From the NCBI RefSeq assembly GCF_044647545.1, contig NZ_CP172818.1: a stretch of 64,000 bases of DNA; one strand, 5' to 3'. Below are positions 53,951 through 55,434 of the stretch, in pieces. The translations under genes and the position numbers were made by a program. The number at the start of each line of letters is the position of its first letter. The stretch's first letter is position 1. The DNA is from Escherichia coli. GTDB lineage: Bacteria; Pseudomonadota; Gammaproteobacteria; Enterobacterales; Enterobacteriaceae. The notes beneath the pieces were generated by a model. That model was not told the DNA's origin. It did not search any database and was given only the letters and a program-made list of their open reading frames with translations.

Positions 53951-55434
53951 CTACCCATCTGGTCTGGTTTCGCCAGGATTTACGTCAGCACGATAATCTC
54001 GCGCTGGCTGCCGCCTGCCGCAATTCGTCTGCGCGCGTGCTGGCGTTGTATATCGCTACCCCACGCCAGTGGGCGGCGCATAATATGTCGCCGCGTCAGG
54101 CTGAATTTATCAATGCACAACTGAACGGGCTACAAATCGCGCTGGCGGAAAAAGGCATTCCTTTGCTGTTTCATGAAGTGGATGACTTTGCCGCCAGCGT
54201 CGAAATAGTTAAACAGGTGTGCGCGGAAAATCGTGTTACCCATCTGTTTTATAACTATCAGTATGAGGTGAATGAGCGGGCGCGGGATGTGCAGGCTGAG
54301 AGGGCGCTGCGTAACGTGGTGTGTGAAGGATTTGACGACGGCGTGATCCTGCCGCCGGGGGCGGTGATGACTGGCAATCATGAGATGTACAAAGTCTTTA
54401 CGCCATTTAAAAACGCCTGGCTTAAACGGCTGCGAGAAGGGATGCCGGAGTGCGTCGCTGCGCCAAAAGTACGTAGTAGCGGATCGATAGATCCCGCGCC
54501 ATCCATTACGCTGAATTATCCTCGTCAGCCTTTCGATACTGCGCATTTCCCGGTGGAAGAGAAAGCGGCGATTGCGCAATTACGCCAGTTTTGCCAGAAC
54601 GGTGCCGGAGAGTATGAGCAACAGCGAGATTTCCCTGCGGTAGAAGGCACCAGCCGTTTGTCCGCCAGCCTGGCAACGGGCGGGTTATCGCCTCGCCAGT
54701 GTTTGCATCGCCTGTTGGCGGAACAGCCGCAGGCGCTGGACGGTGGGGCCGGTAGTATCTGGCTTAATGAGCTGATCTGGCGCGAGTTTTACCGTCATCT
54801 GATAACGTATTACCCCTCGCTGTGTAAACATCGTCCGTTTATTGTCTGGACCGACCGCGTGCAGTGGCAGAGCAATTCCGCGCATTTAAAGGCCTGGCAG
54901 GAAGGCAAAACGGGATACCCGATTGTTGATGCTGCCATGCGTCAGCTTAACAGCACCGGCTGGATGCATAACCGGCTACGGATGATTACAGCCAGTTTTT
55001 TGGTGAAAGATTTATTGATCGACTGGCGCGAAGGTGAGCGATATTTCATGTCGCAGCTGATTGATGGTGATTTGGCAGCCAATAACGGTGGCTGGCAGTG
55101 GGCCGCTTCAACCGGAACCGATGCAGCGCCGTATTTTCGTATTTTTAACCCGACAACCCAGGGCGAGAAATTTGACCGCGAAGGCGAGTTTATCCGCCAG
55201 TGGCTACCGGAACTGCGCGATGTGCCAGGGAAAGTGGTGCATGAGCCGTGGAAGTGGGCGCAGAAAGCAGGTGTGACGCTGGATTATCCGCAACCGATAG
55301 TTGATCACAAAGAGGCAAGGCTGCGAACGCTGGCAGCGTACGAAGAAGCGAGGAAGTCTGATAAAACGCAGCGAGCGTTTTATCAGGCATGGTGCTGGCT
55401 TATTAAGACTCCAGCGCCAGCGCGCGGTTTCTGA
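53947..55434 (+). CDS. phr: Deoxyribodipyrimidine photolyase
   Basis: 495 aa ORF, photolyase/FAD-binding domains; about 23 codons longer than the roughly 471-472 aa expected, overlapping the dtpD 3' end. Confidence 0.9.

Follow-up and report, generated by a model that had tools for sequence, protein, structure and literature searches.

A 4-bp deletion at the end of phrB carries the photolyase reading frame into dtpD in a single Escherichia coli genome record

In the window, by which we mean the entire 64-kb stretch of Escherichia coli DNA analysed here, the photolyase gene phrB lacks four bases close to its 3′ end, and its reading frame bypasses the usual stop codon to end within the convergent gene dtpD. 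The deletion allele is a singleton. We consider it probable that the missing bases are a consensus error in one flawed deposit, in which case the true gene would be an ordinary phrB of 472 aa. Whether it stems from a faulty record or is a trivial allele private to one isolate, the phrB extension is nothing new in kind.

The deletion at the phrB 3′ end

The original prediction held that the phrB frame continues to position 55434, about 23 codons beyond its expected stop, and thereby overlaps the convergent dtpD by 32 bp. The list of open reading frames bears out both the end point and the overlap, which spans positions 55403-55434 and covers the last 10 codons and the stop of dtpD. The dtpD gene itself is unchanged, its DNA being identical to that of dtpD in E. 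coli FDAARGOS_497. The excess of 23 codons was confirmed by comparison with annotated genomes, in which intact phrB encodes 472 aa in four out of four cases; the length of about 471 aa first given for the intact protein (with 471-472 aa as the reported range) was therefore right only at its upper limit. The tandem TGA-TAA in the +1 frame had been correctly recognized as the original stop, as the annotated coding sequences of phrB in FDAARGOS_497, AGR5151 and strain 405 all end with this TGA (55359-55361). The coordinates of all features are collected in Table 1.

Comparison with the reference phrB 3′ end, which had been proposed as a check, uncovered a 4-nt gap relative to FDAARGOS_497. In a local BLAST alignment of window positions 53394-62186 with this genome, comprising 8,797 columns, there were no mismatches and this one gap. 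Either AAGG or AGGA can equally well be taken as the missing bases, since their placement in the alignment is ambiguous by 1 base; with the latter choice, GCGAGGAA[AGGA]GTCTGA has become GCGAGGAAGTCTGA. Where the relatives read GCG AGG AAA GGA GTC TGA (A-R-K-G-V-stop), the window reads GCG AGG AAG TCT GAT AAA. The deleted junction as present in the window reads GCGAGGAAGTCTGATAA, and the intact junction AGGAAAGGAG. The site is a purine (A/G)-rich run, in which the phrB coding sequence meets a REP-like hairpin. A single-base loss in the aggaag run had been suspected here; its location was well chosen, as the frame does shift within the last codons, in the a/g-rich run at 55350-55356, but four bases are gone rather than one, a loss that has the same effect on the frame as that of 1 bp.

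The course of the frameshift, with its 4-bp loss, bypass of the TGA and readthrough of 25 codons, is shown directly. Ribosomes translating this gene would change frame at codon 471 as a result of the lost bases, skip the normal TGA, cross the REP-like hairpin into the 3′ end of dtpD, and encounter the first stop of the new frame only there.

Table 1. Features at the phrB-dtpD junction of the window, and short products in the same shifted frame from other assemblies (positions of the latter refer to their own contigs)
Feature	Position	Strand	Remarks
phrB ORF (predicted class I CPD photolyase)	53947..55434	+	495 aa; ORF list
Deletion junction, codon 470 (aag)	55354..55356	+	4 bases gone after 55354 or 55355
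REP-like palindrome	55356..55388		14-bp stem and 5-nt loop; RNA fold
New codons in the shifted frame (25)	55357..55431	+	Translation and protein alignment
Ancestral stop TGA, followed by TAA	55359..55364	+	+1 frame relative to window phrB, out of frame
tga stop now used by phrB	55432..55434	+	Inside the dtpD coding sequence of the opposite strand
dtpD	55403..56884	-	493 aa, convergent with phrB; ORF list
Short product, L044 (GCA_002230715.1)	3080..3230		1-bp deletion a few bases from the phrB site
Short product, L045 (ERR10498971)	2840..2998		1-bp deletion a few bases from the phrB site

The photolyase and its new C-terminus

Profile and structure matches identify the window protein, as far as sequence comparison can tell, as an enterobacterial class I CPD photolyase. 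The two Pfam domains are complete: PF00875 scores 149.5 bits over residues 5-168, and PF03441 scores 294.7 bits over residues 272-466, covering positions 1-202 of the 203 in its profile. The NCBIfam equivalog NF007955 covers residues 1-471 over 472 profile positions with 952.7 bits, at a cut-off of 506, and chain A of PDB entry 1DNP aligns to residues 2-471 with 1058.9 bits. W307, W360 and W383, which we take to be the electron-transfer triad of 1DNP, are all present.

Aligned to the common 472-aa allele WP_022645365.1, the window product is native, and indeed identical, over residues 1-470, while residues 471-495 are new. The usual C-terminus of a 472-aa protein ending in ...ARKG-X-stop is missing on account of the 4-bp deletion: relative to E. 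coli PhrB as represented by 1DNP and NF007955, the window protein has exchanged its last 2 residues for 25 unrelated ones and measures 495 instead of 472 aa. K470 is kept; the Gly-Val pair formed by G471 and V472 is lost. Both lost positions vary in nature: in our protein alignment, position 471 is G or W and position 472 is A, K or V.

The new tail is basic, with a net charge of about +2.4, contains a hydrophobic core of 10 residues and matched no protein family in Pfam and NCBIfam profile searches. A structure prediction for the 495-aa protein, computed from a shallow alignment of 10 sequences, reached a mean pLDDT of 35.5 and was unusable. A shifted frame is expected to meet its next stop after about 64/3 = 21 codons. 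At 25 codons, the tail is of about chance length and nothing points to selection for a longer frame; the extension and the overlap with dtpD call for no further explanation.

The frame crosses a REP-like hairpin

REP elements are imperfect palindromes of about 35 nt that are able to form a stable stem-loop, and the element at 55356-55388 is a palindrome with this capacity. RNA folding of positions 55340-55440 gave -40.5 kcal/mol (z = -3.7). The hairpin aligns with GCCTGATAAGACGCGTCAAGCGTCGCATCAGGC, the distal REP of the phrB-dtpD spacer in K-12, which we presume to be a REP by its agreement with the REP consensus; the conserved GTAG tetranucleotide found 5′ of the K-12 copy is, however, absent from the window. 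Whereas REPs are extragenic by definition, the whole element in the window lies inside the phrB frame and not after it. In the intact allele, the phrB stop falls within the 5′ arm of the hairpin, a position shared with REPs close to stop codons. A degenerate pattern built from the window copy alone detected 1 site in the 64-kb window, namely that copy itself.

The phrB-dtpD spacer is polymorphic. Spacers of the K-12 type are longer by about 110 bases, which include a second REP, while the short spacer, in which the REP arm encodes the last residue and the stop of phrB, occurs in at least 3,432 of 5,426 complete genomes (roughly 63%). In the window, the phrB frame also runs through a second stem, which holds the dtpD stop, and a simple scan for intrinsic terminators yielded none between the two genes.

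REPs located no more than 15 nt from a stop codon are reported, in a passage of PMC12306157 that cites Liang, Rudd and Deutscher (2015), to stall ribosomes and to lower translation. If the deletion were real, ribosomes would open up the REP-like hairpin and stop translating only 43 nt past it, in the dtpD 3′ end. That such a deletion matters for expression, in that termination at this distance past the hairpin would free photolyase from a REP brake, strikes us as very improbable. Were it true, translation through the REP could, speculatively, also alter the 3′-end stability of the phrB and dtpD mRNAs.

Distribution of the allele

Of 5,426 complete E. coli genomes, 5,422 contained the phrB-end locus in a megablast search with a 411-base query. 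FDAARGOS_497 gave the best match, in which the locus spans 415 bases. The deleted junction occurred in none of the 5,426: with an 85-base query that had the junction at its centre, the best match had 95.5% identity, equivalent to the 4-nt gap. It was likewise found in none of the GTDB species representatives and on none of the metagenome contigs searched, 36 of which carry the intact junction. The 495-aa PhrB corresponds to WP_400165217.1, named deoxyribodipyrimidine photo-lyase in RefSeq and recorded on 1 contig, compared to at least 1,000 contigs for the parent 472-aa allele. No other strain thus shares the extended C-terminus, as a lesion confined to this sequence demands. A UniRef entry labelled 'n=4 Tax=Enterobacteriaceae' was dismissed as proof of sharing, since UniRef100 merges sub-fragments too and the full protein is found on that one contig only.

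A search with the tail peptide returned only two short products, encoded in the same shifted frame in other assemblies (Table 1). They do not represent the same event, as each results from a different 1-bp deletion, and adjacent genes on those contigs are fragmented as well. These single-base deletions look like assembly noise, and the purine run at the phrB end may be prone to errors.

The original prediction had likened the phrB lesion to a tract in ybfB (49664-49989), a parallel that does not hold: the ybfB frameshift is widely shared, whereas the phrB deletion is found on 1 contig. In ybfB, a T6 run (49677-49682) replaces the T7 of K-12, so that codon 5 is the last in the original frame. 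FDAARGOS_497 and other genomes have this T6 as well, with the gene marked 'frameshifted' by PGAP, and the product of the downstream 85-aa ORF is recorded on 319 contigs. The change from T7 to T6 is a real, inherited natural allele.

Quality of the genome record

About 57 kb of the window form a backbone identical to FDAARGOS_497. This clean backbone contains no substitutions and two private deletions, namely the 4-bp loss in phrB and an A5-to-A4 deletion at position 15665 in the asnB-nagD spacer, which none of the complete E. coli genomes has. Both lie within A/G-rich runs. Two private deletions in the presence of zero substitutions fit an error process better than divergence.

Other parts of the record are visibly damaged. 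At about 3.0-5.4 kb (3040-5420), the window holds a copy of a gene for a 625-aa rhomboid-family serine protease that is only about 80% identical to the sequence in any complete genome, flanked by perfect sequence on both sides; in FDAARGOS_497 and its relatives, the gene is intact. The 344 mismatches of this scrambled copy have a transition/transversion ratio of 0.57 and are distributed over the three codon positions without bias (114, 109 and 114), and there are 77 indels, homopolymer smearing, runs such as GGGGGGGGGG, a 28-nt poly-A run at 3051-3078, and no ORF of more than 110 aa. This copy has a non-biological look, as unpolished or gap-filled sequence would, for example. A further stretch, at 13469-13651, consists of about 180 nt of AT-rich, unrelated filler with a 49-nt poly-A run at its end. 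In the relatives, this place is taken by 430 nt, among them the beginning of a hypothetical gene; past the filler, the window again matches exactly. Since an NCBI contig of 4,499,902 bp carries a garbled ORF of the scrambled copy (3437-3766), and the 495-aa PhrB is recorded on a contig of the same length, the defects appear to belong to the deposit rather than to the extraction of the window. Frameshifts, extended ORFs and gene overlaps in this genome record should hence be interpreted only together with the reads.

Error or mutation

Our leaning towards a consensus error is based on three observations taken together: the allele is a singleton, the same record contains non-biological stretches, and private deletions have accumulated where substitutions have not. 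It is drawn from error statistics, and several findings speak against it. The loss is a clean one of 4 bp that does not fall in a homopolymer and is bordered on each side by thousands of perfect bases, and sequencing errors more commonly take another form; the 495-aa protein has an accession of its own in RefSeq; and the ybfB frameshift, as a real shared allele, demonstrates that not every oddity of the record is an error. Compared with ordinary consensus indel errors, nothing about the phrB deletion is distinctive, and its size and non-homopolymer context are at most slightly unusual. An indel of a few bases close to the stop, a new-frame tail of chance length, singleton status and a pipeline annotation as an intact protein are features it shares with ordinary 3′-terminal frameshift alleles and with the consensus indel errors of draft or long-read assemblies.

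The same findings leave a real and recent mutation, private to this isolate, as a plausible though less favoured account. The isolate would then make a 495-aa photolyase with an unselected tail of 25 residues. A deletion standing alone in 8.8 kb of perfect sequence, and not of the homopolymer type, agrees well with such a mutation, and small deletions could plausibly arise in purine-rich runs with short imperfect repeats, here AGGA-A-AGGA. Slippage from one AGGA copy to the other was nonetheless rejected as the mechanism because it would take out 5 bases, a discrepancy that itself weighs against a real event, as do the single occurrence set against at least 1,000 contigs with the parent allele, the non-biological stretches elsewhere in the record, and the difficulty of obtaining two private deletions and no substitution in 57 kb from true divergence. 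The protein poses no obstacle to a mutation of this kind: its sequence follows the common allele up to residue 470, the lost residues are naturally variable, and the two Pfam domains, which reach no further than residue 466, are complete. Given native residues up to 470 and complete domains, an enzyme translated from a truly deleted gene would probably still be active. At most, there would be one isolate whose photolyase bears a harmless extra tail, a matter of little biological weight.

That the extension is conserved or functional, be it as a long PhrB isoform, through a programmed frameshift site or by selection for the dtpD overlap, has a negligible probability. We found no support for this idea, whose nearest parallels are the two short products in other assemblies, and these have arisen by different 1-bp deletions on contigs with broken neighbouring genes. 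The junction is present in no other genome searched, the tail has the length expected by chance and no family match, and the ancestral 472 aa are annotated in all four comparison genomes, so that a functional extension is effectively refuted. On the reading we prefer, a consensus error, as on that of a private mutation, the annotation pipeline took a frameshifted 495-aa product for an intact protein.

Mosaic features of the window

Away from phrB, the window departs from FDAARGOS_497 in larger blocks. An 8-kb Rhs/ISAs1 island at 45375-53393 lies between ybfA and ybgA, at the rhsC site of K-12, and this site is empty in FDAARGOS_497. The core of the island (45479-51030) is 100% identical to an Rhs element that FDAARGOS_497 carries at another locus, rpmE-yiiX, and its placement in the window could reflect a real rearrangement, gene conversion or a mis-join. 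At the other end, beyond abrB, positions 62187-64000 hold the fimbrial genes ybgO/ybgP, which are about 98% identical to those of K-12. FDAARGOS_497 has an island with FadR and TRAP-transporter genes in their place, indicating that the window is mosaic relative to its closest backbone match.
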